Part shown: piece by piece, positions 39,006-63,145 of the stretch
Position numbering within the stretch: position 1 is the first letter of the stretch
Layout: each line of letters starts with the position of its first letter
Assembly: GCF_964355755.1 (NCBI RefSeq)
Contig: NC_092670.1
Coordinates: forward strand, 34,708,388-34,772,387
Direction: 5' to 3'
DNA: 64,000 nucleotides
Origin: Antedon mediterranea
Lineage: Eukaryota > Animalia > Echinodermata
The notes under the pieces: model-generated
What the model was told of the DNA's origin: nothing
Database searches by the model: none
What the model saw: the letters and a program-made list of their open reading frames with translations, nothing else
Translations under genes and position numbers: made by a program

Positions 39006-40775
39006 TCAATCAATTACATTAAAACTAGAAACGTACATGTCATTATTAAACTTAAGCACAAAATGTTTAGTTTTCTTTTCTTGGTTGCTATATTTCTCGG
39101 TACATAACAATTCCAGCTGGTTGCTTGTTGAAGGTGGATCATCATCTTTAATTTCATAATAGATTTCCTCATCATCCATTTGTTCTACCTTCTTTTTGTT
39201 TGTAGTTGGTTGTGATTTCTCACTTTCTTTAATGTTGTAATATTCTTTTCCTTCCTCTTGCTTGCTTGTAGAAGCTTCTTCATTCACTTCATTGATATTA
39301 TTGTTGCTTTCTTGCTCATTTTCCGTTATCTTTTCTCCCTTCTTTGAAGGTATCTCACTATCTTTAACATTATACATTCTTTCACCTTCTGTTTTATCTA
39401 GTTCCCTTTTTAAGGTTTTGATAGTATCATCATGTTGACTCTGCTTCACAGTTTGTGAATGTACATAGTGTTTTATTTTAAGTGTATACATCAATACTAG
39501 TAAAAGTATCATTAACAGTATCCCAGTTGTAGTTGCAAGTATAATAATAGTTATATCCTTATCATTGTGATTCAACTGTTGATGTGTAGTTGCTGTTGGC
39601 ACAATATCTTTGACTGTGAATTCCATTTCATCAAACCTCTTCTGGACATCAGTACTCACCAAACATGTTACAGTGTAATTACCAGCTGGTAAATTGTTAA
39701 AGCATCTTTCATCATTCTCTTGGTTGTCATCAACGTATGTAATAGGTTCTTCTCCATTCAAACTCCAATTGTAAATTGTCTTATTACCAGATCCACCTTC
39801 TGTGTAGCATTTGAAGCAATTTGCATCCACATGAACTTCTGGTGATTTGTAAAACCTTTTTATTTTCACAATCAATTTAGGAAGAGAAGTAGTTTTAAGT
39901 CTATGATCTTTGACTGTAAATTTCATCTCTTCATATTTTTTCTGTACATCAGTACTCACAAGACACTTGACAGTGTAATTTCCAGCTGGTAAATTGTTAA
40001 AGCATCTTTCATCCTTCTCTTGGTTGTCACCATCCTCAGTAATTTTCTTTCCATTCAATGTCCAATTGTAAATTGTCTTATTACCAGATCCACCTTCTGC
40101 ACAGCACTTGAAGCAATGTGTACTCGCATGCGGTAGTTTAGGTGTTTTATGCAATATTTTTACAATTAATCGAGGGTAAACCTTTAGTATCAATGTGTAG
40201 CACTCGAAAGATACATGTTGGGCGAAACTTGTGAAGCAATAAAAGAATATACCATCTCCAGCTTGGAAACCAGTCAATGTCTGACTAATACTTAAGCTAC
40301 TGCTATTAACATTATATGACTGCATATTGATATATCTTCCTTGGATCCATCCTATTGTTAATTCTTTTGTGTTTACTCGAGTGTATTTCTTGATGCATGT
40401 GATTTTTAATTCTTCATCTTTTTCAATGTTTTTAAAATGTTCACATTCAAGATACATAAACTTTTTAGTTGAGATTTTGGTAACTTCTGCTGAAGGAACC
40501 AAATAATGCTTATTCTCGTCATCTTGACATGCGTATATTCCTACACTTTGTTGTTCATTGAAATATATAAACAGATTACAGTTCACTGTATTATTGTTAT
40601 CAGGATGTTTTCCTTTAAACTGTTTGCTTGATGGTAATACTGCTGGATAGCGCATATATGATGTATCCAAGCAATCATATAGCCACCATAGAACAGCGCC
40701 TTCTACAATGATATTACTGACATTCAAGAAGCAAACCACTGCTATGAAGTTGAGGATAACTTGTGACCTGGTCAT
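39006..40775 (-). CDS. Receptor copy A: type I membrane protein with intronless CDS, Ig-like ectodomain (two copies of the membrane-proximal domain) and Tyr-motif tail, 589 aa
   Basis: Uninterrupted ORF. Signal peptide MTRSQVILNFIAVVCFLNVS; Ig-like motifs NLFIYFNEQQSVGIYAC, LKITC..IGW..GDGIFFYC and 2x FKC..EGGSGN.TIYNW.LNG..AGNYTV.CLVS; TM ITIIILATTTGILLMILLLVLMYTL followed by KIKH; tail motifs MYNV, EYYNI, EEIYYEI. Confidence 0.85.
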   Translation of the reverse strand: MTRSQVILNFIAVVCFLNVSNIIVEGAVLWWLYDCLDTSYMRYPAVLPSSKQFKGKHPDNNNTVNCNLFIYFNEQQSVGIYACQDDENKHYLVPSAEVTKISTKKFMYLECEHFKNIEKDEELKITCIKKYTRVNTKELTIGWIQGRYINMQSYNVNSSSLSISQTLTGFQAGDGIFFYCFTSFAQHVSFECYTLILKVYPRLIVKILHKTPKLPHASTHCFKCCAEGGSGNKTIYNWTLNGKKITEDGDNQEKDERCFNNLPAGNYTVKCLVSTDVQKKYEEMKFTVKDHRLKTTSLPKLIVKIKRFYKSPEVHVDANCFKCYTEGGSGNKTIYNWSLNGEEPITYVDDNQENDERCFNNLPAGNYTVTCLVSTDVQKRFDEMEFTVKDIVPTATTHQQLNHNDKDITIIILATTTGILLMILLLVLMYTLKIKHYVHSQTVKQSQHDDTIKTLKRELDKTEGERMYNVKDSEIPSKKGEKITENEQESNNNINEVNEEASTSKQEEGKEYYNIKESEKSQPTTNKKKVEQMDDEEIYYEIKDDDPPSTSNQLELLCTEKYSNQEKKTKHFVLKFNNDMYVSSFNVID

Positions 40776-42175
40776 TGTAATTTCTTCACCTCTACTAAGA
40801 ATTTTTTCTGACGTTACTTTAGTAAACTGTTGTTTCCATGAATACTAAAACAAATGATTTTGATGCATCTGTAAAGAAAGCACGATATTGAAATTATTAT
40901 TTTCTTTTTAACTGAAAACAAAACAAATTTTTATTTCTGTGTCTACTTCTGTTTTTGACAACAGTCATAACAACGATAATAGTTGTAATTATTATTATAG
41001 TTATTTTTCAAGGTTCATAAGAGCCTACTGAAAGTCTGAAAAGAAAATGTATCTGTAGTACAAGCAATGTGATGAAATCTGCTGTAAACTGTGTCTATGC
41101 AATGAATTGAATATTCTAGACCTGGATAATTAAAATTAAATTAATTGTTAACGTTTTCCGTCTTCCGACATTACGCTTTCCACAATTTGTTTCCATTTTT
41201 TTCTGTTTATGGCAGGATGGTTTGTTATTGTGTTAGTGTCTACTTGTCCTTGTAAGTCTTTCTTTATTTGATTCATCCAGTTATTTCTTGGTCTTCCTAC
41301 ATATTCCAATACATATACCATGTTCACAACTAAGGATATTGAGAATGGAGAGATACGCTGCAGAGTATTTTATAATAAAGTGTATTATGCTATAAGTATA
41401 TTGTATCTCGAGTCGAGTGGCTGAGCAGTTTAGGCAGTTGGTCTCAAAGGTCTGCTATGAATTATGTGCCTGCATGGCACATTGGTTGGCTTTTGTCGAT
41501 ACTGTATTTTTACAGACATGGTCTGAAAACTTACCTACTGGAAGTTGTTAGTTTAATGTACATATACAATATTTGTTATTGACGGTCAATTTCTGACATT
41601 TGGACTGCTTGGTAGGTTTGCTTGCTTCTGGTAGTATAAAGGCTAAAATAAATGAAATTTTATTTGTGAAGTATGTAGTCAGTCTCACTGCATTACAGTA
41701 CAAATGTCCTATATTCATGTACCATTACATACAGTATATGAACACTATTTCGATTAGAAAATCATTATAGAGCGGGTACACCTCTATTCAAGGAACATTA
41801 GGGAAACTTTCATTTGAAGCAAACATGGAAAATGTGTTATAACACAGGCGACCCTTATTTAGGGGACATTTTCCTGGGTCCCAAAAGTGTTCCCTTAGGG
41901 AAGTACTGTAATCTAAAGTAGAGAATAAACTATATATAGAGGGTACATCAAATAATTTTCTAAAAAGCCCCCAGTGAATATCAGGGGAATGCAGTAAATG
42001 GGTTAAATAGATTTGATTAGTTTTCATTAGGATCTTTTCTATTTTCATTCTTTAGTTCTTTTTTCTTTCATAGTTTATTGCACAGTAGTAGTCGTGGTTC
42101 ATTATGCAAATAACAGCAAACAAGATTTTGATACAGAAAAAGAAACAAAAATATTAGGCTAGATAAAATTATCTT

Positions 42176-43345
42176 CTACTTCTGATGTATCAATTGAAAC
42201 GTACATTTTTCACACACAGCTACCCAATTCTTTCGGTAACAATGTTGATCACGCCAAGCACCACCATGGCGCTTAAACAGAGCAGCACAATTATTACCGT
42301 TACTAAGTTTGGGCTGGCCTTGTTGCCAATCTGAAAGATTAATTACGACTTTTAAGGACTAGTAGAAAAGAAATAAAGTCTTAAAATGATCATGTAACTT
42401 TCATTTATTTAGAGAAGTGAGTAACATACTTTTAAGTTTAATAACTTCCCATTGGGCATATACAAAATTGATAAACATGGATTGAAAAAATATTAATTTT
42501 AATTTTTTAATCTGAAAGTGATATTTATTATTCGTATGAAAGCTGTTTCTTCAGATTTTTTAATTTATGAGCAAAATATCAAAAGAACTGAATAAAAGAA
42601 TAAAAACAAACGTACTTTCATAACTTGATGTGTTTAACATCCACTCAAATATGCCATCTCTATCTATATCATCAATGTAGCCAATCCATGAGGCATTTGA
42701 TGTGGAATCTTCAGTGAGTCTCTGAAGTACCCACATGTTTTCACTTTCACTTGAAATTTCAACCAAATTACTTTTCAAACGCTGGCATTTTTGCGACATG
42801 TTTAGCCACGTACCAGAAGTGTTTGTGACCCAGTAGCATTTGGAAAATGAGGCATTGTAGTGCCATCCTGTTGGACAACCTGTAAATAAATTATGATTTT
42901 AATCGACCTTTTTGACAGACTGAAGTTTAAAAAAACTGTTCCGAAGATAATAAATAATAATTGCTTCTTTACATTGTTCTTAGCATCAGTGCCATAATGT
43001 CTTTCACTGGCTAAAGCCAGAGACACCAGAGCTACAGTAAGAGGTCCTTAGAGGCTCTTTCCCCCTGTGTAGCACCACTGCTATTGTATACGATTTGTCC
43101 TTCAGGTCAAAGGTTAAACTTTATTGCATTTATTCGATAATTATCCGATTTGAATTAGATAATTATCGATTAAATTTCTCGAGTTGAATTGGTTAGACCC
43201 CGTTTCCACAGGTATTTTATCGGTTAATTATCAGTTAATTTTATCGGTTAATTTTTGACTGCGGAAAAACAGCCTGTTACTCACCACAGGTAATGTAATA
43301 TGTAACAGCCAAATATGACAGTACTGCAAGTCCTCTCAGTTCCAT
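42176..43345 (-). CDS. Secreted single-domain C-type lectin-like protein (about 159 aa)
   Basis: Coding exons 43285-43345 (signal MELRGLAVLSYLAVTYYITCG), 42616-42879 (CPTGW..KCY..W....KC....SNLVEISSESEN..SWIGY....GIFEW) and 42176-42330 (NWQQGQPK..NCA..GAWRDQHC....VCEK). GT-AG junctions, both phase 1; upstream UTR-exon donor near 43916. Confidence 0.88.
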
Positions 43346-44697
43346 TTACATAAATTTTAAATTCTGTAAATATAAAAAAAAAGGAGGAGGGGGCTAGCTA
43401 GACAATAATCATATTCTTTAGATAAAAATTTGTGGAGCTGTGTTGTCGACTCACGTTATCGATTCTCATCTGCACATTGCGTTTGTGGCACCACTATTAG
43501 TGACACTGACAACCACTTTATAAAACAGGATTAATTAGAGAGCTTTCACAAAATACGTAATTTTAGCTTCAGGAAATTTTCATTTAGATTTTATATTTCC
43601 TAGACTCTAAAGCTAGACAATTCAGCTATTAAAATGTGTTGTTTAATTGTAATTTAATTAATTAATAAACTAGTATGTTTGCCTGTGAGATGCCGGTGGG
43701 ATTTTACGAAATCCCACCGGGAATTATGGTCGGGATTCCCGGTGGGATCCTGGGAAGATCCCGCCGGGATTTCCGATTGTTTTTTTACCCAGGTATGCCT
43801 GTGAAAACATAAAATCCATTTCACATCTATAATGTTCAGTAGTCACATCAGTCAGTTTGTGGTGTCACGATTAAAAAGTAATAATGTTTAATAAAATAAA
43901 CTATTAATAAACTTACGTCAAAGATTGGTTCATCTAGCTAACAGCTACACTTTGTTAGTTCTTGTTATGTTGTTGCCGGTTGGTCTCCTCTGTACCACTT
44001 CGTTATTTTCTGGTAAAGTCTAGCAGGAAAACAACTGACTAGCTGTTTACTAGATGAAGCTGTTTATAGTTGGTTTAACTATTACTACTTTGAAACCAGA
44101 TGAAATTGTTTCACACTTTTAAATGATTAAATAATTTAATATAAAATGAATGAATGGTTAGATGAACACATGAATGAGCAAGAAGCAGGGGGAAAATGGA
44201 CACAAATATGAATTAAGGAATAAATCAAGCGTTGGGATCTACATACCCTTAAATTGCTGTAAAAGGTGAAAAATGACCAAGTCACTGCTGCTTATAAAAA
44301 TTTGATATGGTTCTTTCATGAACATACTCTTTGCTGAACAAAAACTAGGTGTATGACCATTCATTCAATTGTAACTTGAAACTTCATGTTTAATTAGAAG
44401 TTTATTACAAATAAATTATTTAATCAATAATGTCATTGAACAGTGTTACTGAGACATTGCTTCAGTTTTTTGTCTGTACTTGCGTCAAAGTCAGTCAACC
44501 ATGAATCCTCTCGAATTATAAGCTGTTTTGATTTTATGCGACACGATTGCATATCCATTGTCTTTATCTCTAATATCCATTTTTGCAAGGGGACACTTGA
44601 AATGAACGAATGACAAATATGTTTTAATAGTACAAAAAAAATGAATTTAATGCAAATTGTGGGTGTCACACAGGTATATTATAATGTGCAATAATTT

Positions 44698-45959
44698 CTA
44701 ATACATAAACACTCCTAAATACCAGGTACGCCACATGAGTGTTTCACATCTATATATAAATACTCCTTAATACCAGGTATGCAACTTGAGTGTTTCACAT
44801 CTATACATAAACACTCCTAAATACCAGGTACGCCACATGAGTGTTTCACATCTATATATAAATACTCCTTAATACCAGGTATGCAACTTGAGTGTTTCAC
44901 ATCTATACATAAACACTCCTAAATACCAGGTACGCCACATGAGTGTTTCACATCTATACATAAACACTCCTAAATACCATGTACGCCACATGAGTGTTTC
45001 ACATTAATATATAAACACTCCTAAATACCATGTACGCCACATGAGTGTTTCACATCTATATATAAACACTCCTAAGTACCAGGTACGCCACATGAGTGTT
45101 TCACATCTATACATAAATACTCCTAAATACCAGGTACGCCACATGAGTGTTTCACATCTATATATAAATACTCCTAAATACCAGGTACGCCACATGAGTG
45201 TTTCACATCTATATATAAATACTCCTAAATACCAGGTACGCCACATGAGTGTTTCACATCTATATATAAATACTCCTAAATACCAGGTACGCCACATGAG
45301 TGTTTCACATCTATATATAAACACTCCTAAATACCAGGTACGCCACATGAGTGTTTCACATCTATATATAATACTCCTAAATACCAGGTATGCAACTTGA
45401 GTGTTTCACATCTATATATAAATACTCCTAAATACCAGGTACGCCACATGAGTGTTTCACATCTATATATAAACACTCCTAAGTACCAGGTACGCCACAT
45501 GAGTGTTTCACATCTATACATAAATACTCCTAAATACCAGGTACGCCACATGAGTGTTTCACATCTATATATAAATACTCCTAAATACCAGGTACGCCAC
45601 ATGAGTGTTTCACATCTATATATAAATACTCCTAAATACCAGGTACGCCACATGAGTGTTTCACATCTATACATAAACACTCCTAAATACCAGGTACGCC
45701 ACATGAGTGTTTCACATCTATATATAAATACTCCTAAATACCAGGTATGCAACTTGAGTGTTTCACATCTATATATAAATACTCCTAAATACCAGGTACG
45801 CCACATGAGTGGTTCACATCTATATATAAATACTCCTAAATACCAGGTATGCAACTTGAGTGTTTCACATCTATACATAAATACTCCTTAATACCAGGTA
45901 TGCAACTTGAGGTGTTTCATATCTATACATAAAAACTCCTTAATACCAGGTATGCAACT
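44698..45959. repeat. 51-bp minisatellite, about 25 copies, two interleaved unit variants
   Basis: Unit CTATATATAAATACTCCTAAATACCAGGTA(CGCCACA/TGCAACT)TGAGTGTTTCACAT. Confidence 0.97.
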
Positions 45960-47889: not shown

Positions 47890-48590
47890 AGCTTTATCAT
47901 CTATTTCATCTTCAAGTACTGCTTCTGGTTGTCTGTTGTTGCTTGTTGATGATCTCTCATTGTCTTCATCTTTGAATTCAATACTTTATTCATTTATTTT
48001 ACTATTAGAAATCTTGACATCTTCCATTTCATCAGTGTTATACATCGCATTATACATGATCTGTGAAGTTGTTTGAGAATCTGCTTGTCTGTTGTTGCTT
48101 GTTGATGGTCTCTCATTTTCTTCATCTGTGAAATCAACACTGTATTCATTTATTTTAATATTAGAAATCTTGACATCTTCCATTTCATCAGTGTTATACA
48201 TTGCACACATGATCTGTGAAGTTGTTTGAGAATCTGCTTGTCTGTTGTTGCTTGTTGATGGTTTCTCATTGTCTTCATCTGTCAATTCAATACTGTATTC
48301 ATTTATTTTAATGTTAGAAATCTTGACATCTTCCATTTCATCAGTGTTATATATAGCATTATACATGATGTGTGAAGTTGTTTGAGAATCTGCTTGTCTG
48401 TTGTTGCTTGTTGATGGTTTCTCATTGTCTTCATCTGTCAATTCAATACTGTATTCATTTATTTTAATGTTAGAAATCTTGACATCTTCCATTTCATCAG
48501 TGTTATATATAGCATTATACATGATGTGTGAAGTTGTTTGAGAATCTGCTTGTCTGTTGTTACTTGTTGATGGTCTCTCATTGTCTTGGA
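47890..48590 (-). repeat. 156-bp coding tandem repeat in the tail of copy B (4 units plus a partial fifth past the stop)
   Basis: TGTGAAGTTGTTTGAGAATCTGC recurs at 48527, 48371, 48215 and 48062. Confidence 0.95.
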
Positions 48591-49785
48591 TCTCATAATA
48601 GATCACTTCACTGTCTGTCTGTTGGTTTCTTGAGATTTGTCGAATTGTCACATTGTGTCTTTGTTGTATTGCATTGATCTCTGGAATTTCAATGTCACTT
48701 TCTCTATCACTGTCAGTGTCACTATTTCTATGATAATATATGTTTTGTGGTTTGTTGTGATGCTTTCTTTTTTGTTGGTATAGCAACATAATGACAAGAA
48801 ACCCAAATATGGTTGTCAATGTTGCCAATAGTATATTTGTTATCTCAATTGTTGGTGTTGCATATGGCGTAGTTGTTAGGGATGTGCAGGGATGAACAAA
48901 AAAATCTATTTCATCAGACCTGTTCTGTACATCAGTACTCACCAGACACTTGAGAGTGTAATTACCTGCTGGCAAATTGTTAAAGCATCTTTCATCATTC
49001 TCCTGGTTGTCACCATCTTCTGTAAGTTCTTCTCCATTTAAAGTCCAATTGTAAATTGTACTAGTACCAGATCCACCTTCTGTGTGGCATTTAAAACAAT
49101 GGACTTCTGGTGTTTCCATATGAACTTCCTGTGTTTTGTACTGTCTTCTTATTTCCACAATTAATCGAGGATGAACAGTCAGTATCAATGTGTAGCACTG
49201 ATAGGTTGTGTATGTGGTGAAATCATCTATGGAACAGCAAAAGAATACACCATTTCCAGCTTGGAAACCAGTCAAAGTTAGGTTAAAAATTAACATACTA
49301 CTTTGTAAATCATCATATAACTCCATATTTACATATTGTCCTTGGATCCATCCCATTGTTATTGTTAATGGGTTAAATGTATATTTTAAAAAGCATGTGG
49401 CTTGTATTTCCTCGTCTTCAATGATATTTTCAAAGTTTTTACACCTAAAAGTAGTACGCCCAAAATCTAAATCTGCAATCCAATTTGCTTCAGCAGAAAC
49501 CACGTAGTGTTTATTCTTATCATCTTGGCATGTGTATAAACCTGCATTTTGTTGTACATTAAAATATATAAACAGATTACAGTTCACTGTATTATTCTTG
49601 TCAGGAAATTTTCCATCAATTTGACCTCTGAACTGTTTATTTGATGGTAGTATTGCTAGATGATAAATATGTGATGTATCATTACTTGTATAATTCCAAT
49701 ATATGAAACCTTCTACAGTTGTATTACTGACATCATGGACAAAAATCACCGCTACAAGGATGAGAACAAGTGATGACCTGGCCAT
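47986..49785 (-). CDS. Receptor copy B: Ig-like type I receptor with intronless CDS and four about 52-aa Tyr-containing tail repeats, 599 aa
   Basis: Intact ORF paralogous to A. TM ITNILLATLTTIFGFLVIMLLY then QQKRK; motifs VIYYEI, IMYNAI x2, IMYNAM, EYSIEL. 5'UTR acceptor TTTCTGTTTCAG ends at 49979. Confidence 0.85.
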   Translation of the reverse strand: MARSSLVLILVAVIFVHDVSNTTVEGFIYWNYTSNDTSHIYHLAILPSNKQFRGQIDGKFPDKNNTVNCNLFIYFNVQQNAGLYTCQDDKNKHYVVSAEANWIADLDFGRTTFRCKNFENIIEDEEIQATCFLKYTFNPLTITMGWIQGQYVNMELYDDLQSSMLIFNLTLTGFQAGNGVFFCCSIDDFTTYTTYQCYTLILTVHPRLIVEIRRQYKTQEVHMETPEVHCFKCHTEGGSGTSTIYNWTLNGEELTEDGDNQENDERCFNNLPAGNYTLKCLVSTDVQNRSDEIDFFVHPCTSLTTTPYATPTIEITNILLATLTTIFGFLVIMLLYQQKRKHHNKPQNIYYHRNSDTDSDRESDIEIPEINAIQQRHNVTIRQISRNQQTDSEVIYYEIQDNERPSTSNNRQADSQTTSHIMYNAIYNTDEMEDVKISNIKINEYSIELTDEDNEKPSTSNNRQADSQTTSHIMYNAIYNTDEMEDVKISNIKINEYSIELTDEDNEKPSTSNNRQADSQTTSQIMCAMYNTDEMEDVKISNIKINEYSVDFTDEENERPSTSNNRQADSQTTSQIMYNAMYNTDEMEDVKISNSKINE

Positions 49786-50689
49786 TATACAATGCCTTCA
49801 CCTCTTTCAATCTTTTGATTTTAGTAAACCTTTTCTATTCTTGATATAATAATACATCAATTATAGAATGCCTTCACCTCTTTTAAGTAAATGTCTCCTG
49901 ATCTTGTGTGAATATTTCCAGTTACCAATCTTGTAATACACAATAAAATGAACCTTACAGAAATAAATTGTGATGATTCTGAAACAGAAACAAACTCTAG
50001 TGCTTGCTTGTGGTTGGTAACAAATTATTATCTTATTTCTTGATCTTGTATTAAATATAGATACAACGTATAATCTTGTTATCTGTGATCAAAAGTCGCT
50101 TAAAAATAATCGTTATCGTAATATTCTAATGTTTCATAAAATATAGAAACAAAAAGTACTAGATGACAGTTTTAAAGCAAATTTTACATTTAATATTTAT
50201 AATATGAATTATTTGTTTGATATTAACAATGGTGACATGATAAAAACATTAAATCTTGAAAAATACAAATCAAAACATTAATTTTTAAATCATAATTGAT
50301 CTCAGCATGAATCATTATAAATAAAGATCAAATCATTAAATCATGATAATAAAAGGTCACAGCATTGGATAATGATAATAGAGATCAAATCATTAAATCA
50401 TGATAATAAAGATCACAGCATTAAATCATGATAATAAAAGATCACTGCATTTAATAATGATAAAGATCACAGCATTAAATCATGATAATAAAGATCAAAA
50501 CATTAAATCATGAAAAATATTGATGAAAACATTAAATCATGATAATAAAAAATAACAGCATTGAATCATGATAAAGATCACAGCATTAAATCATGATAAT
50601 AAAGATCAAAACATTAAAGCATGAAAAATATTGATGAAAACATTAAATCATGATAATAAAGATCACAGCATTAAAAATCATGATAATAA

Positions 50690-51608
50690 CGCCCGTATTC
50701 TTAAACCGGACTTTAGTCGTAGTTCGAAGTTCGACTTGAAAAAGTCGTAGTTCGAGCTATTACTTCAAATTCGATTAAAAAAAAGTTTGCAGTTCGACTT
50801 AATGAAGTCGAGCTTTTAGTCGAGTTGCACACGTCTGGGTAACAAAGGCTATACATTGGCCAATGACAAGAGAGTATTTGAGGAGCAGACGAAATTTTGC
50901 GCATTGATATCACTTTCCATTTTCTTACAACACTTTTTACGCATCAGGACTATATACATGAAAAATAATTTTAATCGTTAATTATTAGAACAAGATCAGT
51001 ATTAATTTAACAGTGAAGTATATTTGATTAACAACAAACAAAATCTTCAAACTATATTTAGGAACCATGGCGGTACGGTAACTTTTATATTTTCTAGGCC
51101 CCCAACAAAGTATGATCGCGACAAACCACGCACTTCATAGCGTGACAAGAAAGCGCTAGGCCCCCTAAACATTCCATCACGTGGTGAATTTCCGCATCTG
51201 CCATTGTCGCTAATGGCGTGACGTAGTTCAAGTTGGACTTGCGCGAAGAAAATAATGTAATTTGTATACGGTTGTAAATAAAGATGATTTTCATTATTAT
51301 AACTTATACCAATGTATATTTAATTAAGCTAATATAAAAATAGATATTTCATTCTTCCAATATCTGGCCAATATAACAACTCAATGACTGTTACGTTTTT
51401 TATAAACATCGTTTAAAAACCATTTAGTCGACCATTTAGCCTGCTCCCTCCAGGACTAAAAAAATTGATCAAAATCCGTCTCGATTTAGTCGAGGTTGGC
51501 CTGATTTAGTCGGTGATTTAGTTGAAGTTCGGTTTATGAATTAAAATGACGTCACTTTTTTAGTTTTAGCTCGAACTACGACTAAAGTCCGGTTTAAGAA
51601 TACGGGCG
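50690..51608. mobile_element. PIF/Harbinger-like MITE in the 5'UTR intron of copy B
   Basis: Perfect 38-bp TIR CGCCCGTATTCTTAAACCGGACTTTAGTCGTAGTTCGA, TAA TSD (50687-50689 and 51609-51611), absent from the paralogous intron of copy C. Confidence 0.9.
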
Positions 51609-52362
51609 TAAGAATACGGGCGTAAAAGATCACAACATTGATTAATGATAATAAAGATAACAGCATTAAATCATTATAGTAAAATGTCACAGCATTGAAT
51701 AATGATAATAAAGATCACAGCATTATAAATCATGATAAAAAAAATCACAGCATTGAATATCATGATCATGACACTGAATCATGATAAATATAGATTGAAC
51801 GAAGCATTGTCAAGACCACTCTCAGTTAAACCTTCATAAAGGTGTAGCCCATCATTGTCGCCCATAAATGATCCATTATTGTTTGGTTTACAGTATAGAT
51901 ATTGATACTGATCGATACAACTGAAGAGTATACACCAAAAGCTAATTAATGTGTTTGTTTAGATTGTTTGATATTCTACTCGCCAGAAAGTGGTTTTACA
52001 GCACTTCCTTGAAGTGCTGTTGTCTTTTTTTTATTATGTTGTCAATAGGGACTTTACGAAACACGACCGTTAGGGGATGACGACAAATATCCTGTGTTTG
52101 CTAGAGAGCGTAAAATCATATACAGTCAACATAGCCATTTTATTAGTTACACACCTTTGCGCGAAAGACGACGACCAACAGTATCTCTCTCCCTCCCCTG
52201 TGTCGCGGCGTGGGACCCTTGCTTGGCTCTGGTGGAACAGCATAGGCCTAGCCTTCCTAGCTAGGAGCCTCCCATTCAAACGCCGTGCAGAATGTATTGC
52301 TTTTAACACAGCCATTTTAACCTAATAAAGCGTTATATTGTTAAACAATTAAATTAGAAGTT

Positions 52363-53742
52363 TTTTTGTTTATTGTATTCATAAATGATATGGTTGATAA
52401 TATCAAATCTAATATTAGTTTATATGCAGATGATACTTCGTTATATGATATTTGTACAGATCGTAATATTTCAGAACAAAAATTAAATGGTGATCTTAAT
52501 GTCATTTATAATTGGGCAAAAAAATGGAAAGTAACATTCAATGCTAACAAAACGAAAGCTATACTGTTTACACGTAAACATTTAGATAACTATGTTAGTT
52601 TAAATTTCAATAATGTAAATCTACAATTTGTAAATGATCATAGGCATCTTGGTGTAATGCTTAATGCAAAACTCAAGTGGGATTCCCATATCCAATCTGT
52701 AATTAACAAAGCGTCTTTATCTTTAAATATGCTACGTCGTGTCAAACATATTCTACCTCGACAGGCTCTCTGTCACATTTACATATCACACGTTAGACCA
52801 TTAATGGAATATGCAGCTCCTGTTTGGTGTAATATCCCAGATAAATTAAGTGATGAACTAGAAAATATCCAGATTTCTGCAGGTAGAATATGTACTGGTG
52901 CGTGGAAACATACAAGTCATAATGCATTAAGACAAGAATTAGGCTGGTTATCATTGGAAAAACGTAGACAATTTCTTAACCTAATACTGTTTTTTAAAAT
53001 TATTCATAAGTTAACACCGGTGTATCTTTACTCCTTATTTAATTTTTCTGACAATATTGAAGTTTATAACTTGCGTAACATCCGAAATATAATAATTCCA
53101 TTTTGTAAGACCACATCATATCGTTTATCTTTTGTCCCATCTATTATAACACATTGGAATGAGTTAAATAATGAAATAAAAAATTCCTCATTTCTTGTTG
53201 AGTTTAAAAAATTGCTACTGAAATCCAATTTGTTGGAAACAAAAAAACGTTCTTATTATGAAACGGGTGATAAGAAGATTAACCAAATTCACACTAGAAT
53301 CCGACTTGGTTTCAGCTGTCTCAATTCGCATTTATTCTTACATGGACTTCGGGACAATCCAAATTGTACTTGTGGCTTTAATGTTGAGAATCCGCTTCAT
53401 TTCTTATGTTACTGCCCTAATTATAATACACAAAGAGATATTCTACTTGTAAGCGCTAACTCAATTATTGAGGATATCTTAGCCAAGGATTTTTCTTTAA
53501 CATTTAATTTTACATTTTTAAGTGAAATTTTTATTTTTGGTTCCGATCTTCTTTCGAATTGTGAAAATGCTTTATTATTTTATTATGTACAACAATTTCT
53601 TGTTAATTCTGGAAGATTTAATTGATGTTTCTGTTAGTTGTTTTAAAATGTTGTATTTGTTAATCTGAGGCGCCTTGAAGCTAAGATGGTTCCATCTTGT
53701 AAGGCGCCTCTGTGTAATATACTGAATAAAAAAAAAATAAAA
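52363..53742 (+). mobile_element. 5'-truncated non-LTR retrotransposon (CR1/Jockey-group-like RT C-terminus), recent insertion
   Basis: Open 419-aa ORF with FIVFINDM, LYADDT, HRHLGV and a C-terminal Cys/His knuckle (CTCG..E...HFL..C). 3' hairpin at 53668-53710, poly(A) tail, and a 12-bp TSD AAATTAGAAGTT at 52351-52362 and 53743-53754. Confidence 0.93.
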
Positions 53743-53884
53743 AAATTAGAAGTTAAAATATTATTTAGAGTTTTGAAATTTCCACGTTTAAGTGTAATTT
53801 GAACTGTATATTTAAGGTTTAGTACATTATTTCTATTCGTTCTCTGAAAATGGAAACTTTATCGTCTTTAAAAAGTTAAGACTT

Positions 53885-54197
53885 TTTTTTGTTTGTTTTA
53901 TCTTTATACTGGGTGACCTCTTCAGTCAAAGACTGATCTCCCAGAGGGCCCAGTTGGTAATTAGTGGCTGTTATGTACTAATACACCGAGGTAACCCCCT
54001 ACTCGTCTCGAAAGATGTACTAGGTTCTTTAAAGTGCACACGAGCAAGTTGTGTACACTGGACCTACGGTTTATAGTCCTTATCCGAGAAGACTCGTTCT
54101 ACCACCAGAACCATGGAGTGAGTGAGCCTTGAACCCCTGCCGATGTTATGGTTACGTGATTACGGTTCCACTATCTTAACCGCTTGGCCACTCACTC
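53885..54197 (-). mobile_element. tRNA-derived SINE, same family, full length
   Basis: Box A TGGCCAAGCGG, box B-like GGTTCAAGGCT, core GGATAAGGACTATAAACCGTAGGTCC...GAGTAGGGGGTTACC and A-rich tail. Confidence 0.85.
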
Positions 54198-54768
54198 AAC
54201 GACGACGGAATTTCACGCTAAGCTCCTCCCAATTTGTTAAAGCTCATGCATAAATTATTCATGAGAACCATTCTGTGGCTTCCCGTCGTGTTTTGTAAAG
54301 AAGAACATGAAAATGTGGTTGTTTTTTTTTGGTTTTTTCGCATACTAATATTAAATATCAAGTCAAGTACACTTTTGCACAATAAAAAAAAAAATCCAGA
54401 AAAATATGTGGATTTTGGTAGTATATTCATCTGTGGTAGCAAAGTGAAGAAGAAAAAAGAAGATTCAAGTACAAAGTAATGTGGTGTTCTGCATCATTTC
54501 AAATGTTGTTTATTTTTGGTTTTTTTTTCTTCCTTTCTAAACTATATTTAAACATGATGAAAAAGCAATTTTATTGTCTATTCTAGAGGTGTGTTCTGGG
54601 TGACTTTATTTTTGTCAACCCACAGTTTTCTACAAAATGTTATATCAAAGCAGTGATGCATATTTACAGTAGGCAATGAAATGCTAATTTTTTTTTCAAA
54701 TTTCATACTACAAATATTTCATATTTACATTTTCTGCTGCTTGCTTGTCGATGGTTCATCTGTGACAT

Positions 54769-56341
54769 TCATACTTCCTCCAGATGTTCATCTTCCTTTT
54801 GCTGTCTGCTTGTTAAGGGTTCATTTTTTAATTCAATACTGTGTTTATTTATTTTAATATTAGAAATCTTGACATCTTCCATTTCATCAGTGTTATACAT
54901 CGCATTATACATGATGTGTGAAGTTGTTTGAGAATCTGCTTGTCTGTTGTTGCTTGTTGATGGTCTCTCATTGTCTTCATCTGTGAAATCAACACTGTAT
55001 TCATTTATTTTACTATTACAAATCTTGACATCTTCCATTTCATCAGTGTTATATACCGCATTATACATGATCTGTGAAGTTTTGAGAACCTGCTTATCTG
55101 TTGTTGCTTGTGGATGGTCTCTCATTGTCTTTGATCTCATAATAGATCACTTCACTGTCTGTCTGTTGGTTTCTAGAGGTTTGTCCAATTGTCACATGGT
55201 GTCTTTGTTGTACACCATTGACCTCTGGAATCTCACTGTCGCTGTCACTGATGTCATTATTTCTATGATAATATACGTTTTGTGGTTTGTTGTGATGCTT
55301 TCTTTTTTGCAGGTAAAGCAATAGAATTACCAGAAACCCAAATAAGGTTGTCGATGTTGCCAATAGTCTAGTTTTTAAGCCAATTGTTGATGTTGTTAAG
55401 CCAGGGACTCCTTCATTTGCTACTAAAATGGATGTGCAGGGTTGAACAAAAAAATATATTTCATCAGACGTGTTCTGTACATCAGTACTCACCAGACACT
55501 TCACACTGTAATTTCCAGCTGGTAATTTCTCAAAGCATCTTTCATCATTCTCCTGGTTGTCATCATCCTCTGTAATAAGTTCTTCACCATTTAAAGTCCA
55601 ATTGTAAATTGTAGTATTACCAGATCCACCTTCTGTGTGGCATTTAAAACAATGGACTTCTAGTGTTTCCATATAATTAACCTCTGGTGTTTTGTACCGT
55701 CTTCTTATCTCCACAATTAATCTAGGATGAACAGTCAGTATCCATGTGTAGCACCGATATTTGTTGAAATCATATATCCAACAAAAAAATAATACACCAT
55801 CTCCAGCTTGGAAACCAGTCAAAGTTAGGTTAAAAATGAACATACTACTTTGTATAAAATCATCATATAACTCCATATTTACATATTGTCCTTGGATCCA
55901 TCCCATTGTTACTCTTAATTCGTTAAATCTATGTTTTAAAGAGCATGTGACTTGTATTTCCTTGTCTTCAATGATGTTTTTAAAGTTACACCTAATACTA
56001 GTAGATAAAATATCTAAAACTGGGTACCAGTATACTTTAGCAGAAACCGCCACCACATAGTGTTTATCCTCATCATCTTGACATGTGTATAATCCTTGAT
56101 TTTGTTGTACATTAAAATATATTAGCAGATTACAGTTCACTGTATTATTCTTTACAGGAAATTTTCCATCAATTTGACCTTTGAGCTGTTTACTTGAAGG
56201 TAGTATTGCTAGATGATGAATATGTGATCTAACCTCAGTTTCATCCCAATTCCAATATATAAAGCTCTTTACAGTTGTGTTACTGACATCGTGGAGAAAA
56301 ATCACTGCTACAAAGATGAGAATAAGTGATGACCTGGCCAT
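54769..56341 (-). pseudogene. Receptor copy C: ectodomain and TM intact (ORF 55094-56341, 415 aa), tail cut by a nonsense codon and a frameshift; pseudogene or short-tailed variant
   Basis: CAA>TAA at 55094-55096 relative to copy B, then a 2-nt loss at about 55083. Two further tail repeats continue in another frame to 54769. Confidence 0.75.
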
Positions 56342-56719
56342 TATGCAGTACCTTTATCGCTTTCAAGTAAATTTCTCCTGATCTTGTGTAAATATTTCCA
56401 GTTACCAATCTTGTAATACACAATAAAATGAACGTTACAGAAATAAATTGTGATGATTCTGAAACAGAAACAAACTCTAGTGCTTGCTTGTGGTTGGTAA
56501 CAAATTATTATTTTATTTCTTGATCTTGTATTAAATATAGATACAACGTATAATCTTGTTATCCGTGATCGAAAGTTGTTAAAATATAATCGTTATTGTA
56601 ATATTCTATAGTTTCATTAAATATAGAAACAAAAAGTACTAGATGAAAGTTTTAAAGCAAATTTTACATTTAATATTTATAATATGAATTATTTGTTTAA
56701 TATTAACAATGATTACATG

Positions 56720-57290
56720 ATAAAAACATTAAATCACGAAAAATACAAATCAAAACATTAATTTTAAATCATAATAATGATCTCAGCATGAATCATCATA
56801 AATAAAGATCAAATCATTAAATCATAATAATAAAAGATCACAGCATTGGATAATGATAATAAAGATCAAATCATTAAATCATGATAGTAAAAGATCACTG
56901 CATTAAATCATGATAATAAAGATCACAACATTAAATCATGATAATAAAGATCAAAACATTAAATCATGATAAAGATTAAAACATTAAATCATGATAATAA
57001 AGATTAAAACATTAAATCATAATAATAAAGAACAAAACATTAAATCATGATAAAGATTAAAACATTAAATCATGATAATAAAGATCAAAACATTAAATCA
57101 TGATAAAGATTAAAACATTAAATCATGATAATAAAGATTAAAACATTAAATCATGATAATAAAGATTAAAACATTAAATCATGATAATAGGGATCAAAAC
57201 ATTAAATTATGATAATAAAGATCACAGCATTATAAAACATGATAATAAAAAATCACAGCATTGAATATCATGATCATGACACTGAATCAT
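56720..57290. repeat. Degenerate 25-30 bp AT-rich tandem repeat (AAATCATGATAATAAAGATCACAGCATT-like) in the receptor 5'UTR intron; paralogue at 50290-50688 and 51625-51790
   Basis: Read directly; copy number differs between B and C. Confidence 0.85.
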
Positions 57291-57314
57291 GAAAAATATA
57301 ATTATATTTCTATG

Positions 57315-57875
57315 CTATGTTAGTGACGATATCGTGTAAATTGTAAGTTGGAAACCAGTCAAAGTTAGGTTAAAAATTAACATACTACTTTGTAAATCAT
57401 CATATAACTCCATATTTACATATTGTCCTTGGATCCATCCCATTGTTACTGTTAATGTGTTAAATCTATGTTTTAAAAAGCATGTGACTTGTATTTCCTT
57501 GTCTTCAATGATGTTTTTAAAGTTGTTACACCTAATACTAGTACTCAAAATATCTATATCTGCGATAGACCCTGCTTCAGCAGAAACCACATAGTGTTTA
57601 TCCTCATCATCTTGACATGTGTATAATCCTGCATTTTGTTGTACATTAAAATATATAAACAGATTACAGTTCACTGTATTGTTCTTGTCAGGAAATTTTC
57701 CATCAATTTGACCTTTGAACTGTTTACTGGAAGGTAGTATTGCTAGATGATGAATATGTGATCTAACCCCATTTTCATTCCAATTCCAATATATGATGCC
57801 TTTTACAGTTGTGTTACTGACATCATGGAGAAAAATCACTGCTACAAAGATGAGAATAAGTGATGACCTGGCCAT
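57315..57875 (-). pseudogene. Receptor copy D: 3'-truncated fragment (signal peptide + N-terminal Ig-like region, no TM)
   Basis: Homology to B/C stops at LTGFQ (about 57348) and runs into the 5'UTR intron of copy C. Upstream homology ends about 10 nt before the ATG, at 57885. Confidence 0.8.
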
Positions 57876-58786
57876 TATGCAGTACAGTGGGACAGCCAGT
57901 CGACAAATCGTTTCAAATTTCGACTCGGAGAGGGCGCCCTACTTTTCTAATTTAGTTCAAAATTGCTAAATTTTAGGGTGTTGGAAAAACACAATATTTG
58001 TAAATTTAGCTGATTATCGGAAAAATATTGTTAGTGAAATAAATTCATAAATGGTTTTAATATATATACATGTAAAATTAAATGTATTTGAACAAAACGA
58101 TAATCTGTAATTTAACGGCAAAATCAACCAATGTCTTTTTTCCGAAATTGCACCCTAGAAAATCATTAAAATAAAACATTTAGAAAAATTGAACAGTCCT
58201 GAATTTAAAATCCCTGTTAGAAAAATTAATAATCTACAGAATACGATATTAAGATACAAAATTCGGTGGTTGGGATGCAGCTCCGATTATTCAAACTAAA
58301 GGTACCACTATTTGTTCCATCGAAAACTAGCGAAACCGCCATTTTGTAAACACATCGTCATCGTGTTTATGAATTTATTTATAGCGAACGATATACGCGA
58401 TGTTTATAATTGTCCGCGTATAAGAATTCATATAAATAAATACATTCCAATACAACGTATATATTACTTGTTTATTTATCTCAGTATACATTTTAGTTGA
58501 GGAATATTTATCATAACTATTATAATAGCTTTTATACGAGTCCGAGGCCTAGCCCTATTAGCGAGCGATTGTTCCAGGGGCGGAAAGTCACTTAGTGACG
58601 TTGTGATCGGGCGCGTCGGGCCTAGCTAATATTAATAATATATGACCTGAAATAAGCGGCTAACAAGAACTGTTATATACTTGCTTACAATTGTTTTGTT
58701 ATTGATGAACAAACAAGCAATTAGATTGAATAACAAATTGTTTATTCATTTTTTTTGGGTAAAAACATGTACAAACTAGTACTGTA

Positions 58787-60224
58787 TCTATATATAAATT
58801 TACGTAAGGGCAAAAATCGGTAAATCGAGCGTTATTTCTAGAATGTTTACTCGATCGTATATAAAGTTGGTTAGAATCTCGGTACTGATTTTAACCACCT
58901 GATGTAACCCTGTTTACTAATTAAATTGAGTTAGATAATTAGTTATTGACAATTAAAACGAATTTAGGTTCAACGATTTGCCCCAAATAGGGGTGTTTTT
59001 CGATCGTGGTATACACTGTCTAATGGATGTCCGTCTTGAAAAATACCCGAAGACAATAATACGAGGATGCTTCGCATTTTCCTATCTCCTCCTACGATAA
59101 TTGTTTTTAATGGCTGAAAACCGGTTGAACAGCTCGAGTACAGCATCATAATGTTGAAGACAGGCCGATTTTCTTTAAAAAATACTATTTTGATAGATTT
59201 AATATACGTTTATATAAATGTATTGATTTGCGATGAATGGAACATTCCAATCTCTGTTACACAAGTGTCTATTCCCTCAGGCGTCGTAAAGGCAAGTACT
59301 GTATACTCATAACAGAAATTCGATCCATTTTTTCCCAATCTGTTCTGCAGAGGTTGGATATAATTTTTTTTAAACAGATAATGAGCTAGCGTTTTCAGTC
59401 GCCGTATATTATGTACAAATCTTTATTATTGCATTTAAACCACCCACATCATCACCCTTTCCTCACTGGCATGAGTAGCGTTGTAAACCAAGAGGATAAG
59501 CCTATACGGTGCATCACATGCCCTAAACGCAGAACAACTTTGGTGGGTAGGGTAGGAACCAACTTAATTATGAATTGGCTCTAAGAAACAATTGAAAACC
59601 ATTGGGCCTACTAATTAAGTTGAGTTAGATAATTTAATATTTATTGACGATTAAATCGAATTTATGATTTTCCCCGAATAGAGGTGGTTTTCACAAATTG
59701 TTTAACATTATATATAAACATACGTCATCATAGTGTATCGTTACATGTACTGTACTATTTCAATCGACTACGACGGTGATAGTTTCAACAAAGTATTACA
59801 TCATCGCAATGTTTTACTGTGTTTAGTGGTATATTATTTGTAAAACATGAAAACAATTAATATTTCGTTACAAAATAAAGAATATTTTTAAAATTGTTCC
59901 TCTTTGCACCCATCCTCTTCCCCATCCCTCAACCATAATGTTACATACAAAACACAAAATATGTTTGCTTAAATCTGACTTTTAAAACAATTGGTCTCAT
60001 TTTGTGACAAGTTTCTCTTTCGGAAGTAATTCCCAGGGTGCTAATTTTAGTTGAGTACATAAATCACAGTGTCTTTTTATTCGTTCCTGTAAACGACATG
60101 TATTATTGTCCTGCATTATTGTACATTTGAAATCGCCATTTTTTTTACGCTGAAATCATGTATTCGAGAACCATCTGTGGGCACGACCTAGATGGTACGC
60201 GAGCAAAGCGAGCGTGCCATCTAG
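58787..60224 (+). mobile_element. Non-autonomous Helitron-like element
   Basis: Begins A|TCTATATATA and ends with hairpin CTAGATGGTACGC..GCGTGCCATCTAG|T; no TIR or TSD. A second copy of its first about 83 bp lies at 60416-60498. Confidence 0.65.
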
Positions 60225-60523
60225 TAATATAAATTAATAGTAATATTAAACTAATACAGTATTAATAAAATATAAAATAGGCCTAACATACAATAAATAT
60301 TCAATTTTTAAGGTCTACCACATGACAATAACATATTTACAGGGTATAGTGTAGTAGGTTTGCATTCAACATAAATATTTGTATTGTAATTCATCTAAAT
60401 CCTCTGCAACATACATCTATATATAAATTTACGTAAGGGCAAAATTCGGTAAATCGCGCGTTACTTCTAGAATGTTTACTCGATGGTATATAAAGTTGAT
60501 CAGATCACCAGGCTAGGCCGGCC

Positions 60524-61955
60524 TTCACCATTTAAAGTCCAATTGTAAATTGTAGTATTACCAGATCCACCTTCGGTGTGGCATTTAAAACAATGGACTT
60601 CTAGTGTTTCCATATGAACCTCTGGTGTTACTGTTTTGTAAAGTCTTTTTATTTCCACAATTAATCGAGGATGAACAGTCAGTATCAATGTGTAGCACTG
60701 ATAGGTTATGTATGTGGTGAAATCACCTATAGAACAACAAATTACGTTGTTTTTAGAACTAACCAAAAGAACTTTGACAAAAACCAGTTTAAAATAAAAA
60801 TGAATAATGTGTTATTACATAGAAAAGAAAATGTGACATTTCTAGGTGTAATTTTAAACGAAAATCTTAACTGGAAACATCACATACAGCTTATTAGGAA
60901 AAAAATGTCTAGGGCAATTGGTATACTTTTAAAAGTAAGAGAATTCTTTCCTCATAAAGTCCGTATTAGTCTTTATAACACCTTAGTATTACCTCACCTT
61001 CTGTATGGTAACTTAATATGGGGAAATACATACAAGAGCATGTTAGAAGCAATACTAAAACTCCAAAAGAGATCTGTAAAATGCATTACCTTCTCTAAAT
61101 CCAGACAAGCCTCAGAGCCACTGTTTAAGAAACTAAAAATATTAAACGTTTATGATATTTACAAAGTAAACGTCATAGGATTTATGGCAAACGTAAAATT
61201 CAATGAATTACCACATCACATTTTAAATATTTTTAATTACTGTGACAGTATTAGGCCTACTCATAACCTCAGAACAGAAACTGAATTCGAAATTCCCTTC
61301 ACAAGACTAACTTGCAAAAAAACGAAGCTACACTGCTTTTTTATGCAGGATCCCTGTTTTCAGTTGTACTGTAATTATGATGTACTGTAAATGATGACTA
61401 AATAAATGTGGAATAAATGAAATAAATGAAAAGAATACACCATCTCCAGCTTGGAAACCAGTCAAAGTTAGGTTAAAAATTAACATACTACTTTGTAAAT
61501 CATCATATAACTCCATATTTACATATTGCCCTTGAATCCATCCCATTGTTATTGTTAATGTGTTAAATGTATATTGTAAATCTGTTGTGCATGTGACTTG
61601 TATTTCTTTGTCTTCAATGATGTTTTCAAAGTTTTTACACCCCAAAATCATCTGCGATCGAAATAATTGCTTCGGCAGATCTAACCACATAGTGTTTATC
61701 CTCGTCATCTTGACATGTGTATAATCCTACACTTTGTTGTACATTAAAATATATAAACAGATTACAGTTCACTGTATTATTCTTGTCAGGAAATTTGAAC
61801 TGTTTACTTGATGGTAGTATTGCTAGATGATGAATATGTGATGTAACCCAATTTTCATTCCAAATCCACATTATAACGCCTTCTACGGTTGTGTTACTGA
61901 CATCATGGAGGAAAATCACTGCTACAAGGATGAGAAAAAGTGATGACCTGGTCAT
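60524..61955 (-). pseudogene. Receptor copy E: frameshifted, LINE-interrupted and 3'-truncated
   Basis: Three pieces: 61635-61955, about 61430-61640 and 60524-60741. A 14-nt deletion at about 61640 relative to B shifts the frame, a LINE occupies 60742-61429, and homology ends at NWTLNGE (60524). Confidence 0.85.
60742..61429 (+). mobile_element. 5'-truncated LINE (CR1/L2-group RT C-terminal region) inserted in receptor copy E
   Basis: ORF segment with TFLGVILNENLNWKHHI, LYNTLVLPHLLYGNLIWG, LQKRSVK and SEPLFKKLKIL. The 3' end is short AATAAATG repeats; the flanks rejoin the receptor sequence GVFF|CCSI. Confidence 0.9.
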
Positions 61956-62844
61956 TATGTAATGCCTTCACCTCAAGTAAATGTCTCCTGATCCTGTGTG
62001 TGATTTTGAGTATTTCTTATCTGTTGCCGATCTTGTAATACAAAATAAACTGAATATTTTATAGAAATATATTGTGATGATTCTGAAACAGAAACTCTAG
62101 TGCTTGTTTGTGGTTGTTCACAAATTATTATCTTATTTCTTGATCTTATATGATTCTTTTTTAAATGTATTTAATCTATTTTGTCATCTGTAAGTGTAAT
62201 CGAAGGTTTTTTTTTGATGATTTTAATCTGCTATATATAGAATTATACATTTATTATAATTGGAAACAAGAAGTACCTATGCCTTTCCTTCAATATTAAA
62301 CTAAGAGCATTTTCATAATTTCATATTTCATAAATATTTGAGTTGTGTTGGTAAGCTGATGGTATTATAACGAATAATGTTTTGGCTGGAATCTACATGT
62401 TGTTCCCAAATGCTTATGGCACAGAATCTGACCCTCCATATAGAATCTAAGAGCTGATGATCACTTTCTATCGAACCCTTAAAGAGGTGGTCCATGGCCC
62501 AAGTAACGATCTGAAATTACATATACATAGTCTGCTTTATCATGTTTGTAATTTAACAAGGCCATACATGGCTGCAGTCGTGTGCTCAAGTTAGTGTTTA
62601 CCGACCGACCGTCCAACCAACTGACCGACATAGTGAGCTGTAGAGTCACCTAATTGTCAAACTTGTGATGGTTACTACTGAATGGGCAAAATTAACTGAA
62701 ATTAAGTAAAATACCCAAACACCAATCAATTGGTTTAGATATTGATGTTTATTAATATTACCCATTATTAATTTTTTATAAATACAACTAAAGAGTATTT
62801 AGTTTAAAATTCAAATCTAATTATTTTATTTCTTCTGAATGCAG

Positions 62845-63145
62845 TGTTTGATATTCTGCTCACCGGAAGTGGGTTGGCAACACTCCCTTGAAGTAGTTGT
62901 CTTTGCCTTTGATAGCTCAACTATAGCTAATTCCTAGAACAGGAAAATGTGGTTGTTTTTGTTGTTGCACACAATATATTACTGTAAATCAAGTTGCTAG
63001 TTAGCACTGTACACTGTACAATAAAATAATCCAGAAAAGCATGTGTATAGGTAGTATAAATAAATTCATTTGTGGTAGAAAAAGTTAAGAAGAAACAATT
63101 TAATATGATTGATGCACAAATAATGTGGTGTTTTGCATAATTCCT
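62845..63145 (-). promoter_or_regulatory. Putative promoter and non-coding exon 1 of receptor copy E
   Basis: Homologous to 51965-52027 plus 54301-54500 upstream of copy B. Minus-strand donor CG|GTGAGC at 62863; TGTGGT at 62948, 63071 and 63124; CCGGAAGT at 62863-62870. Confidence 0.55.

Follow-up and report, generated by a model that had tools for sequence, protein, structure and literature searches.

The vertebrate KIR, LILR, Siglec and NITR receptors are products of multi-exon genes and include paired activating forms that carry a charged residue in the membrane-spanning helix. The subject here is a tandem array of immunoglobulin (Ig)-like receptor genes, copies A to E, in a 64,000-nucleotide stretch of DNA from the feather star Antedon mediterranea (contig NC_092670.1, positions 34,708,388 to 34,772,387; the whole stretch is called the window, and coordinates count from its first letter). 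The array resembles the vertebrate clusters in its tandem Ig ectodomain, its one helix, the tail of some copies, which resembles an ITIM (immunoreceptor tyrosine-based inhibitory motif), and the clustering of its genes, but it is without sequence homology to them and has neither a V-set sialic-acid domain nor a charged helix core.

Hydractinia Alr is a clustered family of 41 loci, 12 of them pseudogenes, whose single-pass products carry between one and three unusual Ig domains (PMC9546547). Clustered single-pass Ig proteins, pseudogenes and Tyr motifs in some tails are common to Alr and the array. The Alr domains and helix are, in contrast, placed on separate exons (PMC9546547), whereas the array genes have a single coding frame; Alr domain 1 is V-set and is followed by an Fn3-like spacer, and activating motifs (ITAMs) are common, whereas the array has a five-stranded first domain and no ITAM. 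No sequence homology to Alr was found. The Fester and fester coreceptor (FF/FcoR) proteins of Botryllus are likewise lineage-specific type I receptors of the Ig superfamily (IgSF), encoded in copy-variable clusters and bearing ITIMs and 'core' YxxI/L/V motifs in their tails (PMC12582321). The array shares with them the lineage-specific clustering of type I IgSF genes and the tail Tyr motifs. FF/FcoR genes, however, are multi-exon, alternatively spliced and paired, encode hemITAMs in some tails and belong to a mapped allorecognition system (PMC12582321), none of which is seen in the array; self-BLAST and tblastn of the window show no second family interleaved in it, unlike the FF/FcoR pairs.

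Two echinoderm systems bear on the comparison. KirrelL is encoded by an IgSF gene that is proposed to have arisen by retrotransposition, lacks introns in all echinoderms examined, and is needed for, and drives, skeletogenic cell fusion (PMC8903837). The array genes, as read from their genomic frame, share its intronless coding region, but kirrelL is described as one gene, present across echinoderm classes, while the array family is multi-copy, pseudogene-rich and found in Antedon only. The Toll-like receptor (TLR) families of sea urchins turn over rapidly, have genes of simple exon structure and include about 26% pseudogenes (PMC3367398), and in these respects are like the array family; they differ in being leucine-rich repeat (LRR)-TIR rather than Ig-like proteins, for which positive selection and immune-tissue expression have been shown. 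Both features thus have precedents in echinoderms: an intronless IgSF gene for which retrotransposition has been proposed, and, in sea urchins, receptor families rich in pseudogenes.

The array family is analogous at best to Alr, FcoR and KIR-type clusters and is a member of none, because it differs from them in exon structure, first domain and tail motifs and the searches gave no homology. Judged by its sequences, it is a real, apparently undescribed, lineage-restricted family of Ig-like receptors subject to birth and death; a literature search (most subscription papers lay outside its reach) returned no description of it and no such Ig receptor cluster for crinoids. The function that fits its anatomy best, and that is proposed tentatively, is that of germline-encoded receptors for immune or non-self recognition.

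Five paralogues and their predicted products

Stop-to-stop open reading frames (ORFs) and tblastn of A and B against the window recover the five co-oriented minus-strand paralogues listed in a preliminary description of this DNA, and none further. Copy A (39006..40775), with an intact ORF of 589 amino acids (aa), comprises a signal peptide (residues 1-26), domains D1 (~27-101) and D2 (~102-199), two copies of a third domain (D3a, ~200-292, and D3b, ~299-392; 85% identical as DNA), a transmembrane helix (~408-430) and an acidic tail with three Tyr units, MYNV, YYNI and IYYEI. B and C have one D3 each, in agreement with the one or two small Ig-like domains first described. Copy B (47986..49785; 599-aa ORF) runs from signal peptide through D1-D2-D3 and helix to a tail with VIYYEI and a 156-bp (52-aa) Tyr repeat present in 4.3 copies, the last of which contains a nonsense codon (TAC>TAA); the next stop is 33 codons on, and the sequence suggests that B could still yield nearly full protein. 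Copy C (54769..56341; 415 aa) is intact in ectodomain and helix and broken in the tail: CAA>TAA at 55094-55096 is accompanied a few bases further by a 2-nucleotide (nt) deletion, the rest of the tail to 54769 is out of frame, and 70 tail residues including VIYYEI are retained. Copy D (57315..57875) is a 5' fragment with signal peptide, D1 and most of D2, whose homology stops near 57348 and in which the shared upstream block is replaced. Copy E (60524..61955) is a pseudogene truncated in D3, with a frameshift near 61650, an insertion resembling a long interspersed element (LINE) at ~60745-61428 and a break near 60524. (All of these lesions are taken from the assembly sequence.) A minus-strand segment at 62936..63149, possibly the tail end of a sixth copy, is 72% identical by self-BLAST to the 3' flank of C (54302-54505), so the array may run on beyond the window.

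One copy in five (A) is therefore intact, two (B and C) are damaged in the tail and two (D and E) are broken, a turnover that looks like birth and death. The full-length, one-exon layout ascribed to the family holds for A, B and C as single frames but not for the fragments D and E, and is undamaged in A alone.

In A, B and C a single unbroken frame leads from a hydrophobic N-terminus through a cysteine-patterned ectodomain and one hydrophobic helix to a polar tail, with Kyte-Doolittle peaks at residues 1-25 and again at ~410 (A), ~318 (B) and ~325 (C), and with 7-8 N-glycosylation sequons outside the tail. Read from the genomic frame, the coding sequence is uninterrupted by introns from signal peptide to tail. 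Ectodomain identities (A-B 57%, A-C 52%, B-C 75%) are far above chance, and the ectodomain cysteines and tryptophans are retained among members that are 36-57% identical. Type I membrane topology is predicted for the products, with an ectodomain of three or four Ig-like sandwich domains. A non-coding block with an acceptor-like TTTCTGTTTCAG is conserved upstream of B, C and E (49860-50051, 56340-56531 and 61954-62151, respectively), and acceptor-like sites lie 93 and 136 nt ahead of the ATG of A; the array genes may have a 5' untranslated exon.

Domain folds were compared with a set of 48,161 solved chains. D3 was taken from a first AlphaFold model of six sequences (mean predicted local distance difference score, pLDDT, 47.8; D3 blocks 58-82), and D1-D2 from a model with homologues added (mean pLDDT 75.4; predicted template-modelling score 0.74). 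The best match of the D3 model is domain 3 of CD22 (Z 9.2, root-mean-square deviation, rmsd, 2.9, 89 aligned); a bacterial starch-binding domain is level with it at Z 9.1, and the matches below these are mostly IgSF domains. The F-strand Cys of D3 lies four residues past Tyr, not two. D2 is modelled as a seven-stranded sandwich (pLDDT 75-85) whose best match is a macroglobulin domain (Z 10.1, rmsd 2.3, 91 aligned), and its sequence carries the Cys-Trp-Cys spacing of the IgSF. At the level of fold, the models thus uphold Ig-like sandwiches in D2 and D3. The V-type first domain of the preliminary description did not survive this comparison: D1 has five modelled strands in ~75 residues (pLDDT 61-86 by block), as against the nine strands (C' and C'' among them) and roughly 110 residues of a V-set domain, its two Cys are 17 residues apart, and its alignment with Ig sequences is confined to the E-F-G part. 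Since D1 was folded together with D2 and hardly probed by the fold search, the lack of a structural match for it does not point to a new fold. None of the Pfam Ig families attained its cut-off in A-D. Hints from sequence agree with Ig-like folds but are weak: language-model neighbours in the Atlas are Ig-clan clusters at 0.89-0.93, and there are the matches to CEA and NCAM2 and that of Pfam Y_Y_Y to D3 given below.

The best-conserved block of the tail, comparing A with B, is IYYEI.D...PSTSN, and the acidic IYYEI motif is common to A, B and C. Acidic IYYEI is likened to Src-family substrate sites and SH2-binding sites. ITIM consensus (as defined in PMC9546547) is matched three times in B and once in C (shuffle P=0.11); the first tail unit of B contains two such motifs (shuffle P=0.022, one of 20 uncorrected tests).

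Homologues and copy number

A profile of the window ectodomains was scored against 1.836 billion representative proteins and gave 16 matches at E<=0.001, two of them at E<=1e-30. These two, XP_071957072.1 (E=1.1e-58) and XP_071950092.1 (E=3.8e-53), are 'uncharacterized' proteins of Antedon mediterranea with 36-44% ectodomain identity to the array copies, whose D1-D2-D3 order and cysteines they keep; by these sequence criteria they are true homologues, and neither has a described function. XP_071950092.1 also retains a signal peptide and a transmembrane helix; its D1 is longer than that of the array copies, and its tail is basic. XP_071957072.1 is encoded on another chromosome-scale record and is without both ends. 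A 133-residue unnamed fragment that spans signal peptide and D1 (E=2.9e-6) is, by its sequence, likely to be a third family member. The other 13 matches, which are long Ig, PKD or SprB-type repeat proteins with short matched stretches, were rejected as members; no echinoderm appears by name among the seven of them that were looked up. (Ten of the 16 matches were looked up in all, and eight were scanned with Pfam; the ten include no Kirrel or KirrelL name and no other echinoderm, no direct comparison with KirrelL having been made.) The claim of a lineage-restricted, tandemly amplified family with no named orthologue stands, in that the scan returned clear homologues in Antedon only, both of them 'uncharacterized'.

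Copies A-D are themselves not in the protein collection searched. No Anneissia member is among the profile matches, although the collection contains Anneissia ERCC3; annotation that overlooks single-exon genes could be the reason. A word-indexed protein search returned nothing for A and, with the family alignment as query, XP_071950092.1 only. Since it missed XP_071957072.1, itself in the query, its blanks weigh little and the taxonomic range given here is that of the profile scan.

Two alternative accounts of the family may be weighed here. The first takes the array genes for cell-adhesion or fusion molecules of development, skeleton or regeneration, KirrelL-like in being an intronless IgSF retrogene, with duplicates that are mostly by-products. 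The precedent of kirrelL itself (PMC8903837), weak sequence matches to CEA (E=0.016) and to NCAM2, whose Ig1-3 are colinear with D1-D3 (E=0.17), and tail Tyr motifs that are not family-wide are consistent with such a role. Adhesion genes of the kirrelL kind are, however, conserved across echinoderm classes, while the array family has clear homologues in Antedon only in the profile scan, is under weak constraint and turns over its copies fast; an adhesion role is accordingly a serious alternative that we nevertheless consider unlikely. The second account is horizontal acquisition of a viral or bacterial Ig/PKD-repeat gene, which would explain the missing introns. Pfam Y_Y_Y lies over D3 and is above cut-off in A (E=5.9e-9), and several of the weak profile matches are microbial PKD/SprB-type repeat proteins, but these are matches of short repeated stretches, and the best folds for the D3 model are animal IgSF domains. 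Scans of metagenome contigs (318 pattern matches) and of viral contigs (5) confirmed no relative, a BFVD search was empty at E<=0.001, and an origin of this kind is very improbable.

An orthologue of A, ~97% identical, is found in contigs of public runs from a second organism (organism B). Summed contig depth over D3 is 6,022-6,833 vs ~256-352 in unique bins in run X1, 817-930 vs ~50 in X5 and 2,757-4,377 vs ~146-194 in X7, that is, roughly 15-25 times single-copy depth in all three deep runs (which is no copy number; the window itself holds five D3 copies only). A loose end at 40117 in X2, X5 and X7 reads, by eye, as the VDVNQ stretch of XP_071957072.1. High D3 depth and loose ends that match this protein make it likely that there are more paralogues outside the window, in both organisms. 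None of the listed runs is recorded as RNA; X8, which covers intron and intergenic DNA at a depth of 3-7, was treated as DNA. The 5' end of A (40650-40900) is uncovered in the runs used for contig comparison, including X2, which comes from the same sample as the window; X1 covers it elsewhere.

Constraint, turnover and possible function

Comparison of A with B gives a ratio of nonsynonymous to synonymous divergence (dN/dS) of 0.31 for D1 and 0.50 for D2, with bootstrap intervals below zero; this ectodomain is under purifying selection, and its sequences are therefore those of real coding genes. In the B/C tail dN is also below dS (0.34), with an interval just below zero, and most ratios among B, C, D and E are in the range 0.3-0.8. 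Differences between paralogues are patchy along the genes (0-16 per 60 columns), and this pattern of identity suggests gene conversion.

Between A and its orthologue in organism B change is fast, with 28 substitutions in covered parts, 20.5 nonsynonymous and 7.5 synonymous; the ambiguous site 39059 and the paralogue-dominated site 39981 are excluded from the count, and most of the 5' part of D3b and the signal peptide are uncovered. The changes are spread over the tail and stalk-proximal domains, with one in the covered part of D1. The orthologue also has an in-frame 27-nt (9-residue) deletion at 39452-39478, just inside the membrane, and a 1-nt insertion at 39059, about 17 codons before the stop, which alters the last ~17 residues. 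Closer to home, run X2 differs from A at eight positions (seven nonsynonymous), all in D3, where paralogue mixing is possible, and run X8 differs at three; X2 and X8 represent fragments from two individuals of organism A. As these sequences have it, recent constraint is weak. Diversifying selection is not shown: no dN/dS is significantly above 1.

Weak constraint allows an account in which the amplification is mostly non-adaptive, a once-functional retrogene family drifting in an unstable, repeat-rich intron with A merely unbroken yet. Lesions in four of the five copies, a between-species dN/dS indistinguishable from 1, the frameshift ~17 codons before the stop of the organism-B orthologue, and spacers filled with LINE pieces and a 28-bp satellite are all compatible with drift. 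Purifying selection between A and B, the low ratio of the B/C tail, the retention of ectodomain cysteines and tryptophans across such divergent members, and the preservation of frame by the 27-nt deletion argue the other way, and we regard drift as improbable. A gamete- or species-recognition surface protein diverging quickly between sister species is more doubtful still. Retrogenes are often germline-expressed, the surface protein is genus-restricted and fast-changing in a free-spawning animal, and a C-type lectin domain lies nearby. On the other hand, the between-species changes fall in tail and stalk-proximal domains, nearly sparing covered D1, and a large, pseudogene-rich family would fit defence better than fertilisation.

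Receptors for immune or non-self recognition might have arisen and might work as follows. The founder would have been a processed copy of a tandem-Ig gene, one copy of which landed antisense in an ERCC3 intron and multiplied there by unequal crossing-over. Membrane-distal D1-D2 would bind a foreign or altered-self ligand; a Src-type kinase would phosphorylate the acidic IYYEI of A, B and C; SH2 proteins would dock on the phosphorylated motif, with a phosphatase docking on the ITIM-like VIYYEI of B and C; and the number of tail repeats would tune the signal. The retrocopy founder suggested in the preliminary description is plausible by analogy with echinoderm kirrelL (PMC8903837), but no parent gene was found. 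The profile of the family matches those of Hydractinia Alr and Botryllus FcoR (PMC9546547, PMC12582321) and of the pseudogene-rich TLR families of sea urchins (PMC3367398).

A number of results weigh against recognition receptors. Nothing in the analysis ties the genes to immune cells. The D2 model finds its top structural matches, from Z 10.1 down to 7, among domains of macroglobulin, SoxY and Fn3 type instead of IgSF domains (PECAM-1 scores 7.0), and D1 is unclassified. Neither A, the sole intact copy, nor XP_071950092.1 has an ITIM consensus, and the tail of XP_071950092.1 is without any YxxI/L/V; A, B and C are free of ITAMs, and neither their tails nor that of XP_071950092.1 contains a hemITAM. 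Counts of YxxI/L/V in the tails are not above those of shuffles. A tyrosine signalling motif common to the whole family, as first proposed, is accordingly unsupported, ITIM consensus occurring in B and C only. The core of the transmembrane helix, as read from the sequences of A, B, C and XP_071950092.1, contains none of the residues Lys, Arg, Asp and Glu, and the sequences thus give no sign of an activating partner. The D2 ratios of 1.64, 3.44 and 2.52 among B/C/D pairs are based on only 1-4.5 synonymous changes, both bootstrap intervals computed for these high ratios span zero, and B vs E gives 0.38. The between-species ratio for A is 0.64 and is indistinguishable from neutral (P=0.22 unweighted, 0.83 with transition bias).

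A bolder form of the proposal is that feather stars independently built a polymorphic, copy-variable Ig system of non-self or allo-recognition from a single-exon retrogene, with a new, truncated five-stranded binding domain, a signal set by the number of tail Tyr repeats and a cluster sheltered in an intron of ERCC3, an essential gene. This is unlikely as it stands, and the allorecognition role suggested earlier gained no specific support. If true, it would provide an echinoderm counterpart of Alr, FcoR and KIR, of which the literature search found none.

The probable ERCC3 intron and neighbouring sequence

Residues 1-612 of the 780-residue DNA-repair protein ERCC3/XPB, XP_071942531.1, map in order onto 15 plus-strand exons at 24894..35215; of these, the exon at 33349-33612 shows 100% identity with XP_071942531.1 and 97% with an Anneissia protein. 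Residues 613-780 have no match anywhere in the window, nor were the C-terminal motifs of the protein found there. The last exon ends in a normal GT donor at 35216, and the intron that it opens is unclosed within the window and at least 28.8 kb long, while the other 14 introns, of ~0.14-2.1 kb, are contained in about 10 kb in total, as befits the description of neighbouring genes as intron-dense. With residues 613-780 absent from the window, the probable reading is that the array, together with the lectin exons described below, lies antisense inside this single intron, whose length would be 28.8 kb or more; less probably, ERCC3 is broken here or the assembly is misjoined.

Between A and B are two minus-strand exons of a C-type lectin domain (42616-42879 and 42205-42330; Pfam Lectin_C E=1.1e-6 and 0.011), for which neither a signal exon nor a 3' end was identified in the window. 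The usual sugar-binding motifs of C-type lectins are QPD or EPN and WND; in their place these exons show QPK and WRD. They may be a remnant. A fused gene of lectin exons and A was considered and rejected: on inspection there is no good in-frame acceptor, and the signal peptide would be buried. The C-type lectin first placed inside the array is thus there, but self-BLAST of the window shows it as a single copy, outside the repeated unit.

Repeats of several kinds occupy the spacers. A LINE-type reverse-transcriptase fragment (52345..53625, plus strand; Pfam RVT_1 E=6.5e-6) lies between B and C. The 28-bp satellite, which is AT-rich, is found upstream of B and C and at the D breakpoint (50298-50689, 51622-51795 and 56719-57274), and may favour unequal crossing-over among the copies. 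A 51-bp tandem repeat (44701-45952; 24.5 copies, 94% identical), open in two opposite frames through its period alone, lies between B and the lectin exons. A dispersed 240-320-bp repeat resembling a short interspersed element is present in three copies, 79-88% identical, at 53887-54198, 4202-4520 and 17941-18171. An Rfam scan of 35200-64000 gave no match. The ERCC3 introns contain uniform minisatellites at 25349-25605 (16 bp x 16, 98%) and 30726-31089 (12 bp x 30, 100%). ERCC3 (from 24894, plus strand) is head to head with an intron-rich minus-strand gene at about 15100-23913, which we take to resemble NOM1 (Pfam did not confirm this), and exons of a plus-strand gene with long Pro/Glu/Gln-rich frames (231, 135, 151 and 503 aa), without Pfam match, are found at 1693-10361.

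The array family is, on its sequences, a candidate immune system and not a demonstrated one. Lineage-specific clusters of Ig receptors with Tyr tails arose separately in cnidarians, tunicates and vertebrates, and the immune genes of crinoids are little studied. Two oddities of the Antedon family are a first domain of five strands and its likely position inside an ERCC3 intron. The family is also nearly invisible to annotation, two 'uncharacterized' models standing beside indications that many more copies exist. With genes of one exon, it lends itself to typing by polymerase chain reaction, and its copy number, allele diversity and selection are therefore directly measurable in Antedon populations.

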